A stretch of DNA of 64,000 nucleotides from the NCBI GenBank assembly GCA_903831825.1, contig CAIKZE010000219.1, positions 2,025 to 66,024 of the forward strand, written 5' to 3'. Source of the stretch: an uncultured Lentisphaeria bacterium (GTDB lineage Bacteria; Verrucomicrobiota; Lentisphaeria; Victivallales; Victivallaceae). This document shows positions 6,772 through 62,160 of the stretch, piece after piece. The notes under the pieces are model-generated. The model saw only the letters and a program-made list of their open reading frames with translations. It was not told the DNA's origin and made no database searches. The translations under genes were made by a program, and so were the position numbers. Position 1 is the first letter of the stretch. Every line of letters starts with the position of its first letter.

Positions 6772-7824
6772 TTATTCTTCCGATTTATAGTTAACCGGTT
6801 TGCCGTCGGCAACCACCGATTTATCCCAGGCGGACTTGACCAGATTGAAAACGTTTTCCGGAATCGGAACGTATTTCAGATTGGTCGCGCTCTGAGCTCC
6901 TTCAGTGAAACACCATTTGAAATATTTGAGCATGGCTTCGGCCTTGGCTTTGTTCTCCTGATTTTTATAAATCAGAATAAAGGTGGCGCCGGTGATCGGC
7001 CATGAATCTTTTCCCGGCTGGTCGTTCAGTTCCATATAGAACGCCGGCGCATTCTGCCAGTCGGCATTGGCTCCGGCCGCCTGGAAAGTGCTGATTTCAG
7101 GTTTAACGAAATTGCCGTCACGGTTTTTCAGCATAACGGTCGGCAGTTTTGATTCAAGCGCATAAGTATATTCGACGTAGCCGATGGAACCCTTGACTTT
7201 CTGCACGTTATTGCAGACTCCCGGGTTCTTCTGACCGCCGATGCCGACCGGCCATTTGACGGATTTGTCGCAGCCGACATCTTTTTTCCAATCAGCTGAA
7301 ACTTTCGTGAGATAATCGGTGAATATCCAGGTGGTGCCGGAACTGTCGGAACGATGAACAACGGTTACCGGAAGGTCCGGCAGCTTCAGTTCCGGATTGA
7401 GTTTGGCGATAGCCTGATCGTTCCAGTTCTTGATATTGCCGAGGAATATATTGCCTACGGTTTCGCCGTCAAGCTTAAGCTGGTTGATTTCCACGCCCGG
7501 CACATTGACGACGATGACAACCCCGCCCATCAGCATCGGAAACTGCATCAACCCGTCTTTTTCCAGTTCTTCCAGTTTCAGCGGATTGTCGGTGGCTCCG
7601 AAATCCACCGTTTTGGATTTAATCTGATTGATGCCCGCGCCCGAACCGACTGACTGATAGTTTATTCTGGTCCCGGTTGCTTTCTGGAAGTTGTAAGTCC
7701 AGACCCGGTAAACCGGTTCCGGGAAAGACGCGCCGGCGCCGTTAATGGTTTCCGCGCAAAATCCCGACACCGCAGTTAAACCTGCGACAATTGAAAGCCC
7801 TGCTGTTTTTTTGAACCAATTCAT
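6772..7824 (-). CDS. pstS: Phosphate ABC transporter substrate-binding protein PstS
   Basis: 350-aa ORF with a signal peptide followed by the PstS-type GAGASFP motif. First gene of the operon. Confidence 0.9.
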   Translation of the reverse strand: MNWFKKTAGLSIVAGLTAVSGFCAETINGAGASFPEPVYRVWTYNFQKATGTRINYQSVGSGAGINQIKSKTVDFGATDNPLKLEELEKDGLMQFPMLMGGVVIVVNVPGVEINQLKLDGETVGNIFLGNIKNWNDQAIAKLNPELKLPDLPVTVVHRSDSSGTTWIFTDYLTKVSADWKKDVGCDKSVKWPVGIGGQKNPGVCNNVQKVKGSIGYVEYTYALESKLPTVMLKNRDGNFVKPEISTFQAAGANADWQNAPAFYMELNDQPGKDSWPITGATFILIYKNQENKAKAEAMLKYFKWCFTEGAQSATNLKYVPIPENVFNLVKSAWDKSVVADGKPVNYKSEE

Positions 7825-7900: not shown

Positions 7901-7964
7901 CGTAATTAGAAATGAAATAAACTTATAAAACGCTTTTGTTAGCATATTGTTATAGTGTTACAGA

Positions 7965-9350
7965 TTAACGACTTAACCGGCGGCACCGGAGCTTTATAAC
8001 TACAGAGGCACAAAGACACAGGGAAAGCATTTTCTCCATTTTGGGCAGCCGACTCCGAGATTTTAGAGAGCCGTTGAGCAGAAGCATTGCCGGCATGGGA
8101 AGTATGGGAAGCATGGGAAGTTCCGACATTTCCGAGTGCTTAGAGAGCTCTTGAGCAGAGGCCGTGTCAGCATAGCCAGCCGGGCAACCGTCCGACTCCG
8201 AGCTTTTGGAGAGTGTTTTAGCAGAGACCTCATCGGATTTTCCGTCGACACTCCCATACTTCCCATACTTCCCATACTTCCCATTATTCCCATCGTCTTT
8301 CAAGATTCCCGAGCCATTAGAGAGCTCTTGAGCAGAGGCTGTTTTGCCCATGCGGCCAGCATAGCCAGCCGGGCAACCGCCCATTTCCGAGTAATTAGAG
8401 AGTGCTTGAGCAGATGTTTAAGCAAATTTCCCATTATTCCCATTATTCCCATCATTCCCATCGGCATTTACCATACCATAGCATAGCACATTCCCGAGAT
8501 GTTGGAGACCGCTTTTAGCTTGCTGTTATTTTGTTTTCCACTTTTCTCGCTTTTCTCGCTTTTTCATTTCCGAGTGTTGGAGAGCCGTTGAGCAGAACCG
8601 TTTTTACTCACTTTTCCGACGGCTGGTTAAGTTTTTCGTTAATAAATTTCAATTTTGTCATTTTGGACATCCTGGACAGTGCTTGAGCAGAAAAAAGTTG
8701 AATAATGTCCAACATCTCCGAGACTTTGGAGACCCGTTCAGCACAACGGTTTTAATTTTTAATAAGATTTTCAAACAACATTTACGACATCTGGTTAAGA
8801 TTTTCGTTAACTGATCCGCAGTCGCGGGAGACCACCGTCCGAGACGGACGACACTATAACAAAACCCATTTTGGACACCGCTTCCCCATATTTTGGACAC
8901 ATGTTCCGGTGTAGTGCCCTCTCTCTGAGAGGGTGGTTCCGGATCCACCGTCCGAGACGGACGGCACTACAACAAAACCCATTTTGGACACCGCTTCCCC
9001 ATATTTTGGACACATGTTGTGCAGTCTCGCCCGGGACTCCGAGCTTTAGAGACATCTCCAGTATGGCGTTTTTGCCAAAAACGCCTCTCTTTGCCGGTTT
9101 TGGCAAAACTGGCATACAATTTTTCTTTCCAACATTTCCGAGGTTTTAGAGTCCTATTGAACACAATCCTTTTCTTCCACGAATTGCTCGAATGGACACG
9201 AAGAAAACCAAATTCGCGATAATCCGTGTAATTAGTGGATATAAAATCCCATTTTAAAAATTATAAGTTTTGTCTTCGTTTTCAGGATTTATTCTGAATT
9301 CTGACTCCTGAATTCTGACTCCTGAATTCTGACTCCTGAATTCTGACTTC
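7965..9350. repeat. Mosaic intergenic repeat array A
   Basis: About 11 degenerate copies of a 30-nt motif (ttccgag-N-ttagagag-N-ttgagcaga) separated by micro-repeat fillers. Fillers include 9-mers of TCCCATACT type in both orientations, a 22-mer x2, a 73-nt unit x2 at 8833-8905 and 8946-9018, and a 14-mer x4. No credible gene. Confidence 0.85.
9296..9350. repeat. 14-bp tandem repeat gaattctgactcct, about 3.9 copies
   Basis: Direct reading gives units at 9296, 9310, 9324 and 9338. Sits immediately before the 147-bp repeat copy A. Confidence 0.9.
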
Positions 9351-9362
9351 TATCCCTTTACC

Positions 9363-9509
9363 TATAGTAAATTTGTCAACGCAGGCAGTGAAATAGAGCT
9401 AAAATAACGCAAAAAATGCGATTTTGAAAGTTGCAGTTCAATGGCATGAAAAATGGTATTCCGGCTTTCTTGCGGGTGGCTTGCCGACGGAGAATGCATC
9501 CTTAATTTT
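9363..9509 (+). repeat. 147-bp direct repeat, copy A
   Basis: Aligns with 10441-10588 with 5 substitutions and one 1-nt indel (hand alignment). Begins tatagtaaatttgtcaacgcaggcagtg. Confidence 0.9.
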
Positions 9510-10367
9510 TCAGAAGATAAAAAAACGGCAAAGAAAAGTCACACAGTGTGTGGCGAATTGCCGTTGTCTGTCTCCGGGAAAGTAAATCGTCACATGCTGT
9601 GTGACGAATCCACGCCGTCGTTTCATCAGGATTTAGGCTGGTCTCATTACCGCACTCTGATGCGGGTCGAAAAGCCGGAAGCCAGGACTTTCTACGAACA
9701 GGAGACCGCACAGGCACATTGGAGCGTTCGCGAATTGGAACGGCAGATAGGCTCACTCTACTATGAGAGATTGCTCATGAGCAAAGAGAAGAAGGAAATG
9801 CTTTGCGAGAATCGCCATACCGTCGGACTTCATCCGCTGGATGTCATCAAGGACCCGTATGTGCTGGAATTCCTGAATCTCCCGGAAGACCATCGCTTGA
9901 ATGAAACGGATCTGGAAGACCGGCTTATTGAAAACCTGCAATCCTTCCTCCTGGAACTGGGCCACGGGTTCGCATTCATCGGACGCCAACAGCGTCTTAC
10001 GCTGGACGGAGACCATTTCTATGCTGATCTTGTATTCTATCATGTCCGGCTGAAATGCTATATCGTCATTGATCTTAAAACGCAGAAGCTGGCTCATGCC
10101 GACCTTGGCCAGATGCAGCTCTATGTCGGTTTCTACGACGAGAATGTTAAGGGAAAGGATGATAACCCCACGCTGGGGCTGATACTCTGCACTGACAAGA
10201 ACGATGCGGTAATCCGGTATGTGCTGGGGAAAGGGCAGGACAAGATATTCGCCAGCCGCTACCGGCTTGAACTGCCGTCAGAGGCAGAACTGGCCGCTGA
10301 AATGCGCCGCGAAATGAAGTTGCTTGGCATGGATGATGCAAAACAAGCGGGGGCTAAAAAGAAATGA
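9453..10367 (+). CDS. DUF1016/YhcG-like PD-(D/E)XK nuclease, 5'-truncated
   Basis: Homology to YhcG-type proteins starts only at LGWSHYRTLM. The C-terminal nuclease core is intact (GFAFIGRQQRL, YADLVFYH, IVIDLK, QMQLY). The first ~50 codons of the ORF are read from repeat DNA. An internal Met at 9594 would give 257 aa, against about 340 aa for typical full-length members as I recall them. Confidence 0.6.
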   Translation: MVFRLSCGWLADGECILNFSEDKKTAKKSHTVCGELPLSVSGKVNRHMLCDESTPSFHQDLGWSHYRTLMRVEKPEARTFYEQETAQAHWSVRELERQIGSLYYERLLMSKEKKEMLCENRHTVGLHPLDVIKDPYVLEFLNLPEDHRLNETDLEDRLIENLQSFLLELGHGFAFIGRQQRLTLDGDHFYADLVFYHVRLKCYIVIDLKTQKLAHADLGQMQLYVGFYDENVKGKDDNPTLGLILCTDKNDAVIRYVLGKGQDKIFASRYRLELPSEAELAAEMRREMKLLGMDDAKQAGAKKK

Positions 10368-10440
10368 AACTTCATTTTGAATCCAGCCTTGATTACCAGT
10401 CACTATTCACCAGTCACTATTTACCAATTGTCTCTACACA

Positions 10441-10588
10441 TATAGTAAATTTGTCAACGCAGGCAGTGAAATAGAGCTAAAATAACGCGAAAAATGCGGT
10501 TTTAAAAGTTGCAGTTCAATGGCATGAAAAATGGTATTCCCGGCTTTCTTGCGGATGGCTTGCCGGCGGAGAATGCATCCTTAATTTT
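10441..10588 (+). repeat. 147-bp direct repeat, copy B
   Basis: See copy A. Preceded by the 14-mer cagtcactattcac x2 and the junction aattgtctctacaca. Confidence 0.9.
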
Positions 10589-10812
10589 AACGCAAAGGCG
10601 CGAAGAAGAACAATAAAGAGAAAAAACCTTTTCAAAAAGGCATAAAAAAACGCATTTTATAATGAATATATGCACAACAAGTAATTTTTTTGCTGCTTGA
10701 CAGTCATAGACATGTTGACCTCATCGGGCTGTCCACTTTTTCCGGCCAGATATCTCCGGGTTTCTTTTTTTATGAAAAAAGTTTGAGATTTTTTGCTTTT
10801 TGCTTTGATTTA

Positions 10813-10831
10813 TGTAACTCTTGGGGTTACA
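10813..10831 (+). promoter_or_regulatory. Palindrome TGTAAC-N7-GTTACA in the higBA promoter region (candidate HigA operator)
   Basis: Perfect 6-bp inverted arms, 45 nt upstream of the higB ATG. Flanked by TTGATT (10805-10810) and TATAAT (10835-10840). Confidence 0.35.
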
Positions 10832-10875
10832 GTATATAATATAAATGAGATTTAGTTTTCAGTCAAGGGTTGGCA

Positions 10876-11154
10876 ATGATAAAAAGTTTTAAGCATAAGG
10901 GTTTAAAGCGGTATTGGGAACAGAATGACTGGCGCGGAATTCAGCATCAACATGCGCATAAGTTAAGATTAATTCTTGATTTGCTGAACGCAGCGACAAT
11001 TATTGATGATGTTGATTTTTCCGGTTCACGGTTGCATCCGCTGGAACCCAAAAAAGATAATATATGGTCGATAACAGTATCCGGAAATTGGCGGGTAGTG
11101 TTTAAATTTGAGAATAACAATGTTTATATTGTTGATTATAAAGACTATCATTAA
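10876..11154 (+). CDS. higB: HigB-type toxin (RelE/ParE superfamily, plasmid maintenance system killer)
   Basis: 92 aa from the ATG at 10876 (MIKSFKHKGLKRYWE...WRVVFKFENNNVYIVDYKDYH), a typical HigB sequence. The toxin precedes the antitoxin, as in higBA. Confidence 0.85.
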   Translation: MIKSFKHKGLKRYWEQNDWRGIQHQHAHKLRLILDLLNAATIIDDVDFSGSRLHPLEPKKDNIWSITVSGNWRVVFKFENNNVYIVDYKDYH

Positions 11155-11169
11155 GCATAATTTAACGGA

Positions 11170-11517
11170 ATGGAGAAAAACATGAATACGGAAAAAGAGA
11201 AGGTTTTAGACGCAACTATGCGCGCGGTCTGCCCGTCGCACCCCGGCGAAATATTAAAGGGATTGTATTTATCCGGTTCGTCAATCAGCATCAGCGAATT
11301 CGCCGAAACGATCGGTGTATCCCGCAAGGCAATTTCGGCGATAGTAAACTGTCACAAATCAGTAACTCCCGAAATGGCAATGCGTTTATCAAGAGCGACA
11401 AAGACAACTCCGCAGTTGTGGCTGAATCTTCAAGCCAACTATGATCTCTGGCATCTTGCGCATGAAAAGCAGGAAGTTTTTTCACAGATCAAACCGCTGG
11501 TTTTCGCAGTGGCATAA
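11170..11517 (+). CDS. higA: HigA-type antitoxin, XRE-family HTH
   Basis: 115-aa ORF with the HPGEILK motif and an HTH (ISEFAETIGVSRKAISAIVN). Starts 15 nt after higB. Confidence 0.85.
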   Translation: MEKNMNTEKEKVLDATMRAVCPSHPGEILKGLYLSGSSISISEFAETIGVSRKAISAIVNCHKSVTPEMAMRLSRATKTTPQLWLNLQANYDLWHLAHEKQEVFSQIKPLVFAVA

Positions 11518-11550
11518 GCGGGCAACTTGCAGGATAAGCAGATAAGCGTT

Positions 11551-11784
11551 TTACTTTTCAAAATGCTTAAGAAACAGCTCCTCAGCCTTTATCCTGCCTT
11601 CAGGCGAAACTACTATTGACTTTGTTTTTCCTTTGGGATCATGAATAAATCCTTTTTGGTAGAGGCGGTCCAGCGTATCCCAATCAAATCCTTTCCAGGC
11701 TCTGGTCATTGAATGTTCACTCCACATAACCAAATAGAGCAGAGCAAGTGTCATTTCATCAACTTTATCTTCGTTATATTTCAT
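11551..11784 (-). CDS. DUF6429-like small protein
   Basis: 77-aa ORF with LALLYLVMW...RAWKGFDWDTLDRLYQKGFI, which matches my recollection of the DUF6429 family. Convergent with higA. Confidence 0.5.
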   Translation of the reverse strand: MKYNEDKVDEMTLALLYLVMWSEHSMTRAWKGFDWDTLDRLYQKGFIHDPKGKTKSIVVSPEGRIKAEELFLKHFEK

Positions 11785-12038
11785 TCCAAAATCCTCCTGT
11801 TTTATAGGAATTTAAACTGCAAAGCAATGAAAATCAATTTATATCGTGGTCAAATTTTTTATATCGTGGTTAAACTTTGGCTGATGCGCTTAAAATCGGA
11901 TTTATGCTTTAAACCAAACTTGCCTGCTGACACATTTCCGGATTTTTGTTAAAATTTATATGCGCTGCATAGTTAGCATTGGCAAAATGATGATATAAGG
12001 ATGTATATTTGAATATAATAAAATCAGGATGTCAAAAT

Positions 12039-13235: not shown

Positions 13236-13286
13236 ATTGCACAGGGACTTGTGTTTTAACAGGGATAGACAGGATGTTGAAAGAGA

Positions 13287-13396
13287 GTAGTCAGTAGTCA
13301 ACGGTATTACGACATGACAGTTTAACGGTATTACAGTCAAACCGTAAAACCGTGGAGCCGTTAAACCGGAAAAAGGATTTCTCTGTGTCTCTGTGG
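13287..13396. repeat. Low-complexity word-repeat patch of the same style as the arrays
   Basis: Contains gtagtca x2, acggtattac x2 (13301, 13325), aaccgtaaaaccg/ccgttaaaccg and tctctgtg x2. The reverse complement of the last resembles acagaggcacaaagacacaggg at 8002-8023. Confidence 0.4.
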
Positions 13397-13506
13397 TTAA
13401 TTGATTTAGCGATTTCCTGCCGGAAATGATTCCAGTCGTTTCATTTATGCGGTTGAAATTTCACGTTTCAGGAGGTTTATTATGAGGAAAAAAATTGGAG
13501 ATATAC

Positions 13507-17482: not shown

Positions 17483-17676
17483 AATATCCAATATCCAACA
17501 CGGAATATCTCGCACAAAGACGCAAAGGCACAAAGAAAAGTAAAACTTGCCATTGTTTTTCTCTCCGTGTCTTCGTGCGAGAAGATGTTCAGCTTTTTGT
17601 ATTCTGCCTTTCCTTCCTCAGTTGGATATTTCCCGCTTCGCGGGATCCCGCCTTGCGGGACGAGATATTGGATATT
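17483..17676. repeat. MITE-like element bounded by a 13-bp perfect inverted repeat
   Basis: AATATCCAATATC (17483-17495) pairs with GATATTGGATATT (17664-17676). The interior carries CACAAAGA-type 8-mers, two small GC hairpins (cccgc-ttc-gcggg, tcccgc-ctt-gcggga) and a segment resembling 9520-9585. Confidence 0.55.
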
Positions 17677-31393: not shown

Positions 31394-32122
31394 ATGAAAG
31401 GGAACTCAACAGTTTTTAATCGAAAACTAAACTTTCACGTTTCGTTTTCGGAGAAGAAAAAGGCAAATTTTACGCTCATCGAACTCCTCGTGGTGATCGC
31501 CATCATCGCGATTTTGGCCTCAATGCTGCTGCCGGCGCTGACCAGCGCCAGGGAAACGGCCAGACAGGCACAATGCATGGGCAACCTTCGTCAAATCGGC
31601 CAGGCCGTAGCCTCCTACTCGCTTGACTATCAGGATTTTTTTCCGTATGCCGTTAACGGCGGCGCGCCGCACACCTTATATTACAATCTGCAACCTTATA
31701 CCGGAATAGTTCCCGCTTACCCTGCAACAGCGGCTCAAGGCAAAATTTACTGGTGTCCGAAAGACACCTACAGGGTGATTTGGAAAGATTGTCAATACAG
31801 CTATACGCAGAACGGTTATATGAATTGCCTTGGCGCATGGGCAACCTATATGCACATGACCCGGATGACGCGGATCAAGAACCCGTCCACCATGGTCTTC
31901 ATGACGGACGGAATGCGGACATCTGCCGGAGTGGAAGGTGGACAATTCTGCTTCTACACCTCAACATACCCTTTTACCGCAGGCTCCAGTTCCACAGACC
32001 TGGCGATTGATTTCAGGCATCCGAATTTAAACGTTCCGTGTTTGTTCGCCGAAGGTCATGTGAACACTAAAAATATTAAGGATATGTACGGAAATACAAA
32101 TTGTGTTTACTACGCGCCATAG
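31394..32122 (+). CDS. Pilin-like protein with prepilin-type N-terminal domain and C-terminal (D/E)GHV box
   Basis: [28 protein letters not shown], with FAEGHV near the C-terminus. I prefer the ATG at 31394 because GGAGG directly abuts the ATG at 31385. Confidence 0.85.
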
Positions 32123-40593: not shown

Positions 40594-40627
40594 TGAAAAA
40601 CAGACGGCGAAGCTTGAAAGCTTCGCC
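40594..40627 (-). terminator. Rho-independent terminator after the cupin gene
   Basis: The minus strand reads ggcgaagctt-tc-aagcttcgcc followed by gtctgttttt. Confidence 0.55.
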
Positions 40628-40648
40628 GCCGGTTTTGAATATTAAAAA

Positions 40649-45949: not shown

Positions 45950-45967
45950 AAGTTAATCGTAAAAGCA

Positions 45968-46006
45968 ACAGCGGCATTCGTCAGGTGACGGATGCCGCTG
46001 TTTTTC
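45968..46006 (+). terminator. Rho-independent terminator after fucI
   Basis: 10-bp stem acagcggcat/atgccgctgt with an inner stem cgtca/tgacg, followed by ttttt. Lies between convergent genes. Confidence 0.7.
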
Positions 46007-52655: not shown

Positions 52656-53423
52656 TTATCTGAATACCGGAATCGCGTCTCTAAGCCAGAAATCGTTGTA
52701 CTTAATATCCTGAACATGGCCGTCAGCCCGGAGCGAATTACATGTTTTTACACCAAATCCGTGTGTCAGAATGCCCAGCGAGCCGGCATTGCCATCGGCG
52801 GGAAGGTCATTGTTGACTAGAGTATCAGGTGTAACTATCCCGTCAGCCCAACTTCCCAAATACCATGTAAAAGCAAACGGATATCTCTCGAATGCCCCGT
52901 CGGCGGAACCTCCGTTGGCGGTTTGCTGTTTGCCGTCGGCAATGGTAAGGACGGCCGCCGGAGATTTTATTTTGCTTACCGGCATGGCCGGAAAGTTACT
53001 GGCATCAGGAACAGTTATGTTGAAATTGCCCATGCCGGTTATGTAAGGATTCACGGAATAGGTCAGTCCCCCGGCAGTGTTTCCGGCTGAAATGGGCTGG
53101 CGAGTGGCCAACGGGCAAATAAACGTGGAAACCGTTTTTCCTCTCAGGTCACGATTTATGTACGGCGCCAGAAAACCGTTCCAACTGTAAGTGGCGGCAA
53201 CGCCGTTAACAACTCCAGGCTGACGCGGCGGTAAATAATTCCTGTAATCATCCGCATACATCTGGAAGAAAAGACCAATTTGTTTCTGATTGCTTCTGCA
53301 ACTGTTGATCTTTGCCGAAATTCTTGCTTTGTTCAAAGACGGAAGCAGCATTGAGGCCAAAATCGCGATGATCGCGATCACCACGAGGAGTTCAATGAGT
53401 GTGAAATTTTTTCGCATATTCAT
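52656..53423 (-). CDS. Pilin-like protein with prepilin-type N-terminal domain and C-terminal (D/E)GHV box
   Basis: [30 protein letters not shown], with RADGHV near the C-terminus. Confidence 0.85.
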   Translation of the reverse strand: MNMRKNFTLIELLVVIAIIAILASMLLPSLNKARISAKINSCRSNQKQIGLFFQMYADDYRNYLPPRQPGVVNGVAATYSWNGFLAPYINRDLRGKTVSTFICPLATRQPISAGNTAGGLTYSVNPYITGMGNFNITVPDASNFPAMPVSKIKSPAAVLTIADGKQQTANGGSADGAFERYPFAFTWYLGSWADGIVTPDTLVNNDLPADGNAGSLGILTHGFGVKTCNSLRADGHVQDIKYNDFWLRDAIPVFR

Positions 53424-61027: not shown

Positions 61028-62160
61028 TTATGATACTGGCCATCTGAACAACAGAATACCGTTCCCATAATTCCCATTCCTCTCATAATTTTCCTTCTTT
61101 GCTTTCCGGCCCATGCAGCCAGTCACCGCAACATTTTGGACACCGGCACGCTTCCCGCAGTTGCGGGTGACGCCACCGTCCGAGACAGACAGGTCGGACA
61201 CCCGCCTCCCACATTTTGGACACCGCCTCGTAGATTCTGGACACTCGACTCCGAGTCGTTGGAGTGTCCTTGTGCGGAACGGTTCCGGTGTAGTGTTCTC
61301 GCTCTGCGAGAGAGGTTCCGGTCTGCCGTCCGAGACGGACGGCGCTACAACAAAGCCATTTTGGACACCCCGTCCGAGACGGACGGCACTACACCAAAGC
61401 CATTTTGGACACCCCCGTCCGAGACGGACGGCGCTACACCAAAGCCATTTTGGACACCCCCGTCCGAGACGGACGGCGCTACACCAAAGCCATTTTGGAC
61501 ACCCCCGTCCGAGACGGACGGCACTACAACAAAGCCGCGTCTTGGACATCCTCTGAGCATATTTTGGACACATGTGCCCACTCCCATTCTCCCCATTCTT
61601 CCCATCAGTCTTAAAAAACATTTTGGACATTTTGGACACTTGTTGTGCAAGACCGTTTTTCCTTTTTTCACAATTCACCAGTTACCATTCACATTCTTTA
61701 CATTTCCGAGATTTTGGAGACCGCTTTGAGGCTGTTGTTATTTTGTTTTCTCATTTTCAATTCTCAATTTTCCATTTTCAATTGTGTGTCCGGTTAAGAT
61801 TTTCGTTAACTGATACCATTTTTGCCTTCCGTTCCAGTCCGACCATTTTGGACACCACATCCCCTCATTTGGGACAGGTCGGACTAGTCGGACAGCTCGG
61901 ACACCCGCCTCGCAGATTCTGGACATCCCCGCGCCTCATCTTGGACACTGGCTCCACTCAACGGTTTTATGAGACTTATGGGGGCGCCTATGATTTTAGA
62001 CACAACTCCGTATCCTTCCCATTCTTCCCATCGGCATTGGCCGATAGCATCGCGCATTTCCGAGACATAGAGAGCCATTGAACAGAACGGTTTCATTTTT
62101 CAACTATTCACCAGTCACCTAATTGTCTCTACATATATAGTGATTTTGTCAATAAGAACG
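61028..62160. repeat. Mosaic intergenic repeat array B, paralogous to array A
   Basis: Shares modules with array A. The 23-mer ggttaagattttcgttaactgat is identical at 8793 and 61791. About 60 nt starting catt(c/t)ccgagat(g/t)ttggagaccgc are ~85% identical by hand alignment between 8488 and 61699. ttcccatcggcatt, the ccgtccgagacggacgg hairpins, ttttggaca words and TCCCAT micro-repeats also recur. Confidence 0.85.
61325..61548 (+). repeat. Five tandem 44-45-bp units, each a 7-bp-stem hairpin plus a ctacaMcaaagccattttggacacc tail
   Basis: Units start at 61325, 61369, 61414, 61459 and 61504. The last unit has a diverged tail. Confidence 0.9.

Follow-up and report, generated by a model that had tools for sequence, protein, structure and literature searches.

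The BOX elements of pneumococci are modular, intergenic, non-coding repeats of the form boxA-boxB(n)-boxC, with a fixed A-B-C grammar and stable hairpins, and they can influence neighbouring genes. Plasmid iteron and centromere arrays are built from 22-bp iterons or, in the case of sopC of F, from 12 copies of a 43-bp unit. In cyanobacteria, the short tandemly repeated repetitive (STRR) heptamers and the small dispersed repeats of Nostoc are said to form intergenic runs of 7-mers interleaved with repeats of 20–30 nt. Repetitive extragenic palindromes (REPs) and REPINs carry a GTAG tag and are mobilised by RAYT Y1 transposases (PMC3733652, PMC3116915). REPIN doublets and ordered tandem clusters including flanking sequences have been described (PMC3116915); the clusters consist of a REP or a REPIN reiterated in tandem together with flanking DNA (PMC3733652, PMC3116915), and GTAG repeats are already known from the Planctomycetes-Verrucomicrobia-Chlamydiae (PVC) superphylum (PMC3733652). 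The locus considered here lies at positions 7965–9350 of a 64,000-nt stretch of the genome of an uncultured Lentisphaeria bacterium (the whole of which is referred to below as the window), where it fills the gap between pstS and a YhcG/DUF1016 nuclease gene. We lean, with moderate confidence, towards the view that this DNA, called array A, is a lineage-specific, non-coding, selfish-like mosaic repeat cluster of the REP/REPIN-cluster or bacterial interspersed mosaic element (BIME) kind.

Module composition of array A

Nearly every base of 7997–9362 matches modules of other arrays, as established by short BLAST comparisons of array A with 61 arrays from other loci. These arrays are mosaics that include microsatellites of 7, 9 and 14 nt, phased TTTTGGACA boxes, a 30-nt motif, GTAG-tagged hairpins and a terminal TAGT box. 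The first-pass annotation had placed the repeats at 7965–9350; the array built of modules runs slightly longer (~7997–9362) and leads into a conserved terminal element (9350–9509; the features are collected in Table 1). All modules of array A lie on the plus strand, with the exception of the 9-mer tracts. More generally, frequent words of the arrays are strand-specific relative to the motif (CATTTTGGACAC, for example, by 62 to 0), the 9-mer TCCCATACT being the exception (13 to 13). Composite units common to different arrays extend over only ~100–170 nt, with 76–92% identity. The segment 9037–9173 is 89–92% identical to units in the loci L021, L022 and L015, and 8488–8538 is 88% identical (self-BLAST) to 61700–61750 in array B, a second array of the window.

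GTAG-tagged hairpins occur in the 3' portion of array A and over a large part of array B. They have an unpaired GTAG-YGC leader and stems of 6–7 bp, which occur in three or four alternative, compensated forms (CCCTCTC/GAGAGGG, CTCTCGC/GCGAGAG, CCGTCCG/CGGACGG and the GGCGTTTTTGCC type). A REP is an imperfect palindrome of 20–40 nt with an unpaired terminal GTAG, and the hairpins are the only modules of the array that answer to this description. In array A they form two REPIN-like inverted doublets; doublet 2 occurs in other loci with an intact GTAG tag. Hairpin and flank are reiterated in tandem, twice with a period of 113 nt and 4.7 times as a 45-nt unit, so that both inverted doublets and tandem clusters including flanking DNA, as in REPINs, are present. 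The earlier statement that the architecture could not be assigned to enteric-type REP or BIME classes is thus half right: there is no sequence similarity, but GTAG-tagged inverted doublets reiterated with their flanks are the anatomy of a REP/REPIN cluster. The alternation of REPs with conserved linkers that defines a BIME was not found, each of the two hairpin types having a fixed orientation.

The 30-nt motif was located with a profile hidden Markov model (nhmmer) trained solely on copies from other loci and genomes. The profile gave nine matches at E<=0.01 and two weak ones within 8049–9174, all on the plus strand, which accounts for the eight copies and three decayed copies reported in the first-pass annotation, and its matches in the window are confined to arrays A and B. 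The degenerate pattern proposed for the motif has seven matches at <=3 mismatches, against 0.00 expected from shuffles. The starts of the copies, given earlier as 66–150 nt apart, cover a slightly wider range (66–182 nt among the listed copies); in repeat family D1 the spacing is 54–280 nt. The consensus of 221 unique copies is ACTCCGAG-act-TTAGAGAgtCgTTGAGCAnAA...TTTTc, in which the near-invariant hexamers TCCGAG, TTAGAG and TTGAGC stand 9–11 nt apart, with variable triplets between them. Block conservation persists when one block alone serves as the anchor for collecting copies, and the pattern is therefore not an artefact of the search. A hairpin or RNA structure for the motif was ruled out by the lack of Watson-Crick covariation in the 221 copies, for which three pairing registers were tested. 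Only 16 of the 221 can form 6/6 pairs, most forming three or fewer, and the CGACAC/GTGTCG subfamily, which forms a perfect hairpin, is limited to 16 copies. The GTAG tag is absent from the motif, which by itself is therefore neither a REP nor a REPIN.

The micro-repeats noted earlier between the motif copies were all recovered. The 9-mer tracts, including the inverted one, and the ttttctcgc repeat were found by Tandem Repeats Finder (TRF) and repeat finding. The 22-mer said to occur twice is part of a 58-nt duplication with 83% identity, and the 73-nt unit said to occur twice is present as a 74-nt unit with 97% identity. Each 74-nt unit holds one GTAG-tagged hairpin (in the minus-strand reading) and two ATTTTGGACAC boxes 22 nt apart. 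The word CTTTTCTCG is among the commonest in arrays elsewhere. There are 19 ATTTTGGACAC boxes in the window, all on the plus strand and inside arrays A and B, against 1.8 expected; the distance between GGACA boxes is 9 or 22 nt, and they stand 11–12 nt 5' of the motif. Judging from their conservation and spacing, the tri-block motif and the phased boxes are likely to be protein-recognition sites.

Arrays A and B share the motif, the ATTTTGGACAC boxes and the CTGGTTAAGATTTTCGTTAAC box. Array B contains 14 GGACA boxes, and its 45-nt tandem unit is related to the 74-nt unit of array A. In the synteny comparison for array B, the contig of the sole relative ends 265 nt upstream of the gene. In its 64 kb, the window has modules at five sites, of which two are full arrays; the others are short intergenic patches. 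Short tandem repeats and GC-rich hairpins (TCCCGCnnnGCGGGA) were also observed at 17483–17535 and 17631–17660.

Array A is neither coding nor an RNA with a conserved fold

No open reading frame (ORF) of array A has a Pfam match and the frame statistics are non-coding, in line with the earlier remark that the stretch holds no credible gene. The stop-codon depletion noted at the same time is real (96 stop codons versus 149 ± 9 in shuffles) and could be taken as a trace of a decayed repetitive-protein gene, or of a real gene that has been frameshifted, as could the 57% of motif spacings that are multiples of 3, the 9-nt ladders and the ORFs of 139–154 aa that gene callers predict here. The depletion is, however, similar in all six frames, each of which has at least nine stops, and conservation runs in blocks, with no period of 3. 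The spacings in multiples of 3 are due to the 9-mer microsatellites. Around the spacing peaks at 54, 78, 102 and 111 nt, off-by-one values are common (53 versus 54, and 110 or 112 versus 111 nt), which excludes coding. In a set of 5.8 billion proteins, the only homologue of the longest ORF (139 aa) is the ORF itself. A protein-coding origin is, therefore, scarcely tenable, the coding reading being effectively refuted, and the ORF calls of 139–154 aa to which the arrays give rise are spurious.

It has also to be considered that the array might be transcribed as a long non-coding RNA or a small-RNA array, in which repeated single-stranded motifs (UUGGACA, UUGGAGA and AUGGGAAG) would sequester an RNA-binding protein, as sponge RNAs of the CsrB/RsmZ type do. 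The strict strand polarity of the modules and the numerous GGA-containing boxes are consistent with such a role, and 8040–8440 folds far better than shuffles (z about −6). However, the inverted 9-mer tracts alone account for this folding signal, which has the same strength on the two strands; the GGA motifs do not sit in hairpin loops and the 221 motif copies do not covary. Rfam 15 gave 0 matches at the gathering score in the window and, at E<=1, only sul1, a chance match of 23.5 bits against a gathering score of 36.2. A scan for sigma-70-type promoters detected no excess and none at the left border of the array or at the TAGT box; the few terminator-like matches are REP-like hairpins. Dozens of variable arrays per genome would, moreover, be unlike any known sponge RNA, and this explanation seems improbable.

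The first-pass annotation found no place for the array among CRISPRs, insertion sequences (ISs) or integron attC sites, and each of these classes fails on its own characters. A CRISPR array was ruled out, given that the copies are 63–81% identical to the reference and that the "spacers" are shared modules or microsatellites; there are no cas genes among the annotated neighbours in the window. Integron attC sites were ruled out by the lack of R''-L''/L'-R' palindromes, by the spacing of 54–111 nt and by the lack of a recombinase at any array. A remnant of an IS, a miniature inverted-repeat transposable element or a prophage was likewise rejected, because no terminal inverted repeats bound the array and it has no plasmid or phage match. 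The suspicion raised earlier that the region might be the decayed remnant of an IS or prophage was not borne out, there being no real phage, plasmid or viral matches: none was obtained among 72,556 plasmid and 50,697 phage records, and viral contigs contain no array, their single match being a chance one inside a coding region.

Distribution, turnover and the variable islet

The search for the motif beyond this locus that had been suggested returned copies in array B and in ~55 other loci. Among 185,579 species genomes scanned for the exact pattern, only three Lentisphaeria/Lentisphaerota metagenome-assembled genomes had the motif, mostly no more than a few hundred bases from the end of a contig. 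Scanning of Joint Genome Institute (JGI) metagenomes gave 53 loci, the majority from the hypolimnion of Trout Bog; the metagenome loci contain 303 motif copies (<=4 mismatches), always clustered and co-oriented within an array. The metagenome contigs with an identical PstS originate in stratified freshwater lakes, and all of them are interrupted within the array. For this clade, the arrays are the places at which short-read assembly stops, and nearly all metagenome contigs terminate in one. The repeat family is absent from a relative with a 70% identical PstS. A literature search on Lentisphaerae repeats returned nothing relevant, and the family appears to be previously undescribed.

Repeat units are gained and lost in the array at a higher rate than single bases are substituted. 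The comparison of strains for copy number that had been proposed showed variation. The ATGGGAAGY tract has three units in the window, seven in the contigs L001 and L002 and eight in L005, with 0–2 substitutions relative to the window over 1.2 kb in the contigs with seven or eight units. One extra copy of the 113-nt-period unit is present in L001, and the number of 45-nt units in array B differs in the ~100% identical metagenome contigs L071 and L072. The pace of unit gain and loss relative to substitution points to slipped-strand mispairing or unequal recombination. In four contigs with flanks 84–98% identical, the array is at the same site, 149–150 nt from a conserved gene, and the order of units is rearranged between same-site arrays whose flanks are 84–92% identical. 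Array unit numbers are ready strain markers for lake populations. Polarity relative to replication, of the KOPS or Chi type, was ruled out, as the GC skew of the flanks relative to array orientation is mixed (positive in 12 and negative in 16 long loci).

Array A ends at a TAGT element (cTTTTtACtATaTAGTRAtTTTGTCAAC), a palindromic box with ~100 nt of less conserved sequence. The 148-nt TAGT element showed no RNA-fold signal (z = +0.47). The box occurs three times only in the window, each time at an islet. Of the 42 arrays with enough sequence, 19 are followed by the box on the same strand at a distance of 70–480 nt, and none has it upstream or on the opposite strand; tandem repeats of 7 to 14 nt are always immediately upstream of the box. 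The first gene past the box is on either strand about equally often.

This polarity gives some support to the idea that the array is a cis-acting platform, in which the phased boxes (GGACA, TCCGAG, TTAGAG and TTGAGC) would bind a putative oligomerising protein. The TAGT box might serve as promoter or operator, the whole might control or insulate acquired genes and microsatellite length could act as a phase-variation switch. In agreement with this proposal, block conservation survives an unbiased anchor, the box spacings (9, 11–12 and 22 nt) are near one or two helical turns, the TAGT box keeps one side and one strand with tandem repeats just 5' of it and appears in the window only at islets, both arrays of the window adjoin accessory genes and microsatellite length differs between strains. 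However, the gene past the box has no preferred strand, and no sigma-70-type promoter was predicted at the box. Ordinary housekeeping operons adjoin many of the arrays, none of the arrays is associated with a candidate binding protein, and the number and order of sites vary even at orthologous loci. We regard the platform as an unlikely explanation; if correct, it would amount to a new bacterial way of organising the borders of accessory islets. A rather unlikely variant holds that the arrays are polar cis-elements, with phased putative protein sites ending in a TAGT box and a leader of ~100 nt, that mark and serve the core-side borders of islets; this would imply an undescribed system to capture, express or silence acquired genes, with microsatellite-length switches.

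Array A lies inside a 4-kb accessory islet that is lacking in close relatives. Gene tables show that, in relatives with 87–89% identical PstS, pfkB is located 259–321 nt from pstS, or an AraC gene is found there, and the homology of the window to L068 and L069 stops at 7923. The array, YhcG, HigBA and DUF6429 are all lacking in these relatives, and 7925–12008 is therefore a variable islet. Absence from the syntenic site of close relatives, which the first-pass annotation would have counted against the interest of the region, was indeed observed; it reveals a variable islet, not that the family is trivial. The YhcG ORF matches only positions 86–137 of the 137-position N-terminal domain profile, and its first ~54 codons derive from the TAGT element; it appears to have lost its 5' end or to have acquired a new one. 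A 20-nt direct repeat (TTTATATCGTGGTCAAAYTT, two copies) with an operator-like look is located at 11838–11878, on the right-hand margin of the islet and upstream of the minus-strand DUF6429 gene.

An islet of this kind could be the work of integron-like or other site-specific recombination acting on cassettes (YhcG, HigBA, a DUF6036 nucleotidyltransferase and RhuM), for which arrays or TAGT boxes would be the sites and arrays the accumulated scars or arm-type sites. Its lack in relatives is consistent with this, as are the two successive units of the window that each begin with the same 148-nt TAGT element and a gene content (toxin-antitoxin pairs, nucleases, RhuM) typical of cassette arrays. 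No integrase or recombinase, however, adjoins any of ~60 arrays; there is no attC-like palindrome, core sites do not fit RYYYAAC / GTTRRRY, the spacing of 54–111 nt is far under cassette size, and core operons are flanked by arrays too. The resemblance of a tandem repeat at 10395–10426 to arm-type sites of lambda Int, which would speak for a cassette system, is probably a single 10-mer coincidence. Such a cassette system is quite improbable.

Genes flanking the arrays are diverse and include housekeeping operons, with no fixed orientation. No recurrent transposase, integrase or RAYT neighbour was found, the neighbours falling into 146 clusters, almost all of them singletons, and those sampled by Pfam or by eye are ordinary or orphan genes.

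Some further observations concern the surroundings of the TAGT elements. A tandem repeat of ACCAGTCACTATTC (2.3 copies) at 10395–10426 contains CAGTCACTAT; this, like the tandem ACCAGTCACTAT in the same place, matches the phage lambda Int arm-type site consensus, maybe by coincidence. Runs of the CAGTCAC heptamer, related to this repeat, precede TAGT boxes in L007 and L048. An ORF of 411 aa resembling a DDE transposase lies just 3' of the TAGT element in L020 (1455–2690, oriented) and also in L046; the L020 ORF has no Pfam match at E<=0.001 and could belong to an IS inserted beside the array.

Two features elsewhere in the window touch neither array. The inverted match of 70 nt between 31465–31534 and 53340–53409 (93%) corresponds to the prepilin-type N-terminal segment of two paralogues, a segment typical of PVC bacteria, and is not a mobile repeat. 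The perfect-centre intergenic palindromes of 36–40 nt at 40597–40636 and 45967–46002 are probably bidirectional terminators.

Table 1. Features of array A, array B and the surrounding islet, in window coordinates.
Feature	Position	Strand	Evidence or remark
pstS	6772-7824	-	Pfam PBP_like_2
Islet, strain- or species-variable	7925-12008		array A, YhcG, second TAGT element, HigB, HigA, DUF6429
Array A, all modules common to other-genome arrays	7997-9362	+	per-base count, short BLAST matches
Motif copy 1, degenerate GGACA box cattttgggcag before	8049-8088	+	nhmmer E=7e-12
(ATGGGAAGY)3 microsatellite, inverted relative to 8252-8293	8095-8121	+	TRF; inverted repeat I2, 96% complementary
Motif copy 2	8126-8164	+	nhmmer E=1e-7
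58-nt composite unit (22-mer + motif), again at 8357-8414, 83% identity	8168-8225	+	repeat family D7; self-BLAST
Motif copy 3	8192-8233	+	nhmmer E=2e-7
(TCCCATACT)4.7 microsatellite	8252-8293	+	TRF
Motif copy 4	8305-8344	+	nhmmer E=2e-8
Motif copy 5	8381-8416	+	nhmmer E=1e-7
(TTCCCATTA)3.8 microsatellite	8428-8461	+	TRF
Motif half copy, blocks 1+2 only	8488-8513	+	nhmmer E=0.008
(CTTTTCTCG)2.6 microsatellite	8541-8563	+	TRF
Motif copy 7, 1-nt deletion between blocks 1/2	8566-8604	+	nhmmer E=1.5e-7
CTGGTTAAGnTTTTCGTTAAY box	8623-8643, 8791-8811, 61790-61810	+	3 matches vs 0.01 expected
Decayed motif copy, blocks 2+3	8667-8692	+	nhmmer E=0.2; repeat family D1
Motif copy 9, then short CCGTT/AACGG hairpin + T run	8712-8753	+	nhmmer E=1.6e-11; terminator-like match
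74-nt unit x2 (8832-8905 / 8945-9018), 113-nt period	8832-9018	+	repeat family D8, 97% identity
REPIN-like doublet 1: GTAGTGCCCTCTCTCTGAGAGGG (+) facing GTAGTGCCGTCCGTCTCGGACGG (-), tags outside	8903-8978		inverted repeat I1; GTAG-hairpin scan, three alternative stems
GTAG hairpins, array A	8908-8935 (+), 8948-8972 (-), 9061-9085 (+), 9092-9120 (-)		tag of 9061-9085 decayed to GTAT
Decayed motif copy, blocks 1+2, abutting REPIN-like doublet 2	9036-9073	+	nhmmer E=0.22
REPIN-like doublet 2: GTAT-GGCGTTTTTGCCAAAAACGCC (+) facing GTAT-GCCAGTTTTGCCAAAACCGGC (-)	9061-9120		inverted repeat I6; terminator-like hairpins
Motif copy 11	9132-9174	+	nhmmer E=1.4e-8
(CTGAATTCTGACTC)3.9 tandem repeat, just 5' of TAGT box	9294-9348	+	TRF, 100% matches
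TAGT-box element: cctttacctaTAGTAAATTTGTCAAC + ~130 nt	9350-9509	+	duplicated at 10441-10588, 96% identity
YhcG/DUF1016 PDDEXK nuclease gene	9453-10367	+	Pfam
Array-module patches, intergenic	10425-10588; 13256-13400; 17510-17582		13256-13400 in opposite orientation
HigB	10870-11154		Pfam
HigA	11170-11517		Pfam
DUF6429	11551-11784	-	Pfam
Array B, same family and strand as array A	~61060-62155	+
Array B motif copies	61246-61284, 61700-61725, 62055-62093	+
GTAG hairpins, array B	61287-61315 (+); five copies in 61326-61536 (-)
Array B 45-nt unit x4.7	61326-61536		unit = GTAG hairpin + GGACA box
Related TAGT box	62138-62152		array B end

Array A beside described repeat systems

If array A is a REP/REPIN-type cluster, its modules of 9–75 nt would be reiterated with their flanks and shuffled between loci, so that arrays fill intergenic DNA across one clade of freshwater, uncultured Lentisphaeria. 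A single-strand Y1 transposase of the RAYT type, with its gene at another place in the genome, may move the GTAG hairpins or may once have done so; for the rest, the arrays could have grown as units were reiterated in tandem and as arrays recombined with, or converted, one another. The hexamers of the motif, separated by roughly a turn of the helix, and the GGACA boxes, with their 9-, 11- and 22-nt phasing, may be binding sites of DNA-binding proteins rather than mere relics; effects on neighbouring genes would be secondary, if there are any.

Several observations weigh against this reading. The 30-nt motif, which is the commonest module, is no palindrome and has no GTAG tag, and the 5' half of array A (8040–8600) is free of REP hairpins. 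The modules are strictly co-oriented, as the 62 to 0 of CATTTTGGACAC illustrates, whereas REPs in BIMEs alternate. The fixed polarity of the arrays toward the conserved TAGT box (19/42 versus 0/42) suggests an organised element, not random accretion, and is the main feature that selfish repeats leave unexplained; strong conservation of the motif blocks is not predicted for pure junk DNA either. A tblastn search of 511 kb, a tiny part of the genomes concerned, with an approximate E. coli RAYT query revealed neither a RAYT nor another transposase. If a REP/REPIN-type cluster is nonetheless the right description, mosaic repeats of REP/BIME type extend to the Lentisphaeria, in an unusually elaborate form that combines a non-palindromic tri-block motif, phased boxes and microsatellite fillers with a fixed polarity.

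Among the systems outlined at the outset, plasmid iterons resemble the arrays in their direct, helically phased boxes, with which the 22-nt period of GGACA and the 45-nt tandem unit carrying a 7-bp inverted repeat may be compared; unlike iterons, the arrays are numerous, chromosomal and heterogeneous in content, with no Rep or Par genes nearby and no plasmid match. The STRR and Nostoc repeats are likewise lineage-specific intergenic 7-mer tandems accompanied by very small repeats of unknown function, but they belong to another phylum and have other sequences, and a tri-block motif, a fixed array polarity or a terminal box are not known to be reported there. BOX elements share with the arrays their modularity, their intergenic position, a variable number of an internal unit of ~45 nt and the lack of a transposase of their own; the arrays differ in their free order, in having many more types of module and in mostly lacking a conserved fold.

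From REPs and BIMEs, the arrays differ in having no sequence similarity to any described REP family, in a dominant module that is a non-palindromic tri-block motif without GTAG, in the co-orientation rather than alternation of their modules, in their long microsatellite fillers and in ending at a conserved TAGT box. They nevertheless share with REPs, REPINs and BIMEs an extragenic position, a high copy number, GTAG hairpins with lineage-specific stems, outward-tagged doublets and tandem clusters with flanks. As in BIMEs, REPs are mixed with other short motifs, and both kinds of repeat break short-read assemblies. What the array most resembles is a selfish repeat cluster of the REP/BIME type.

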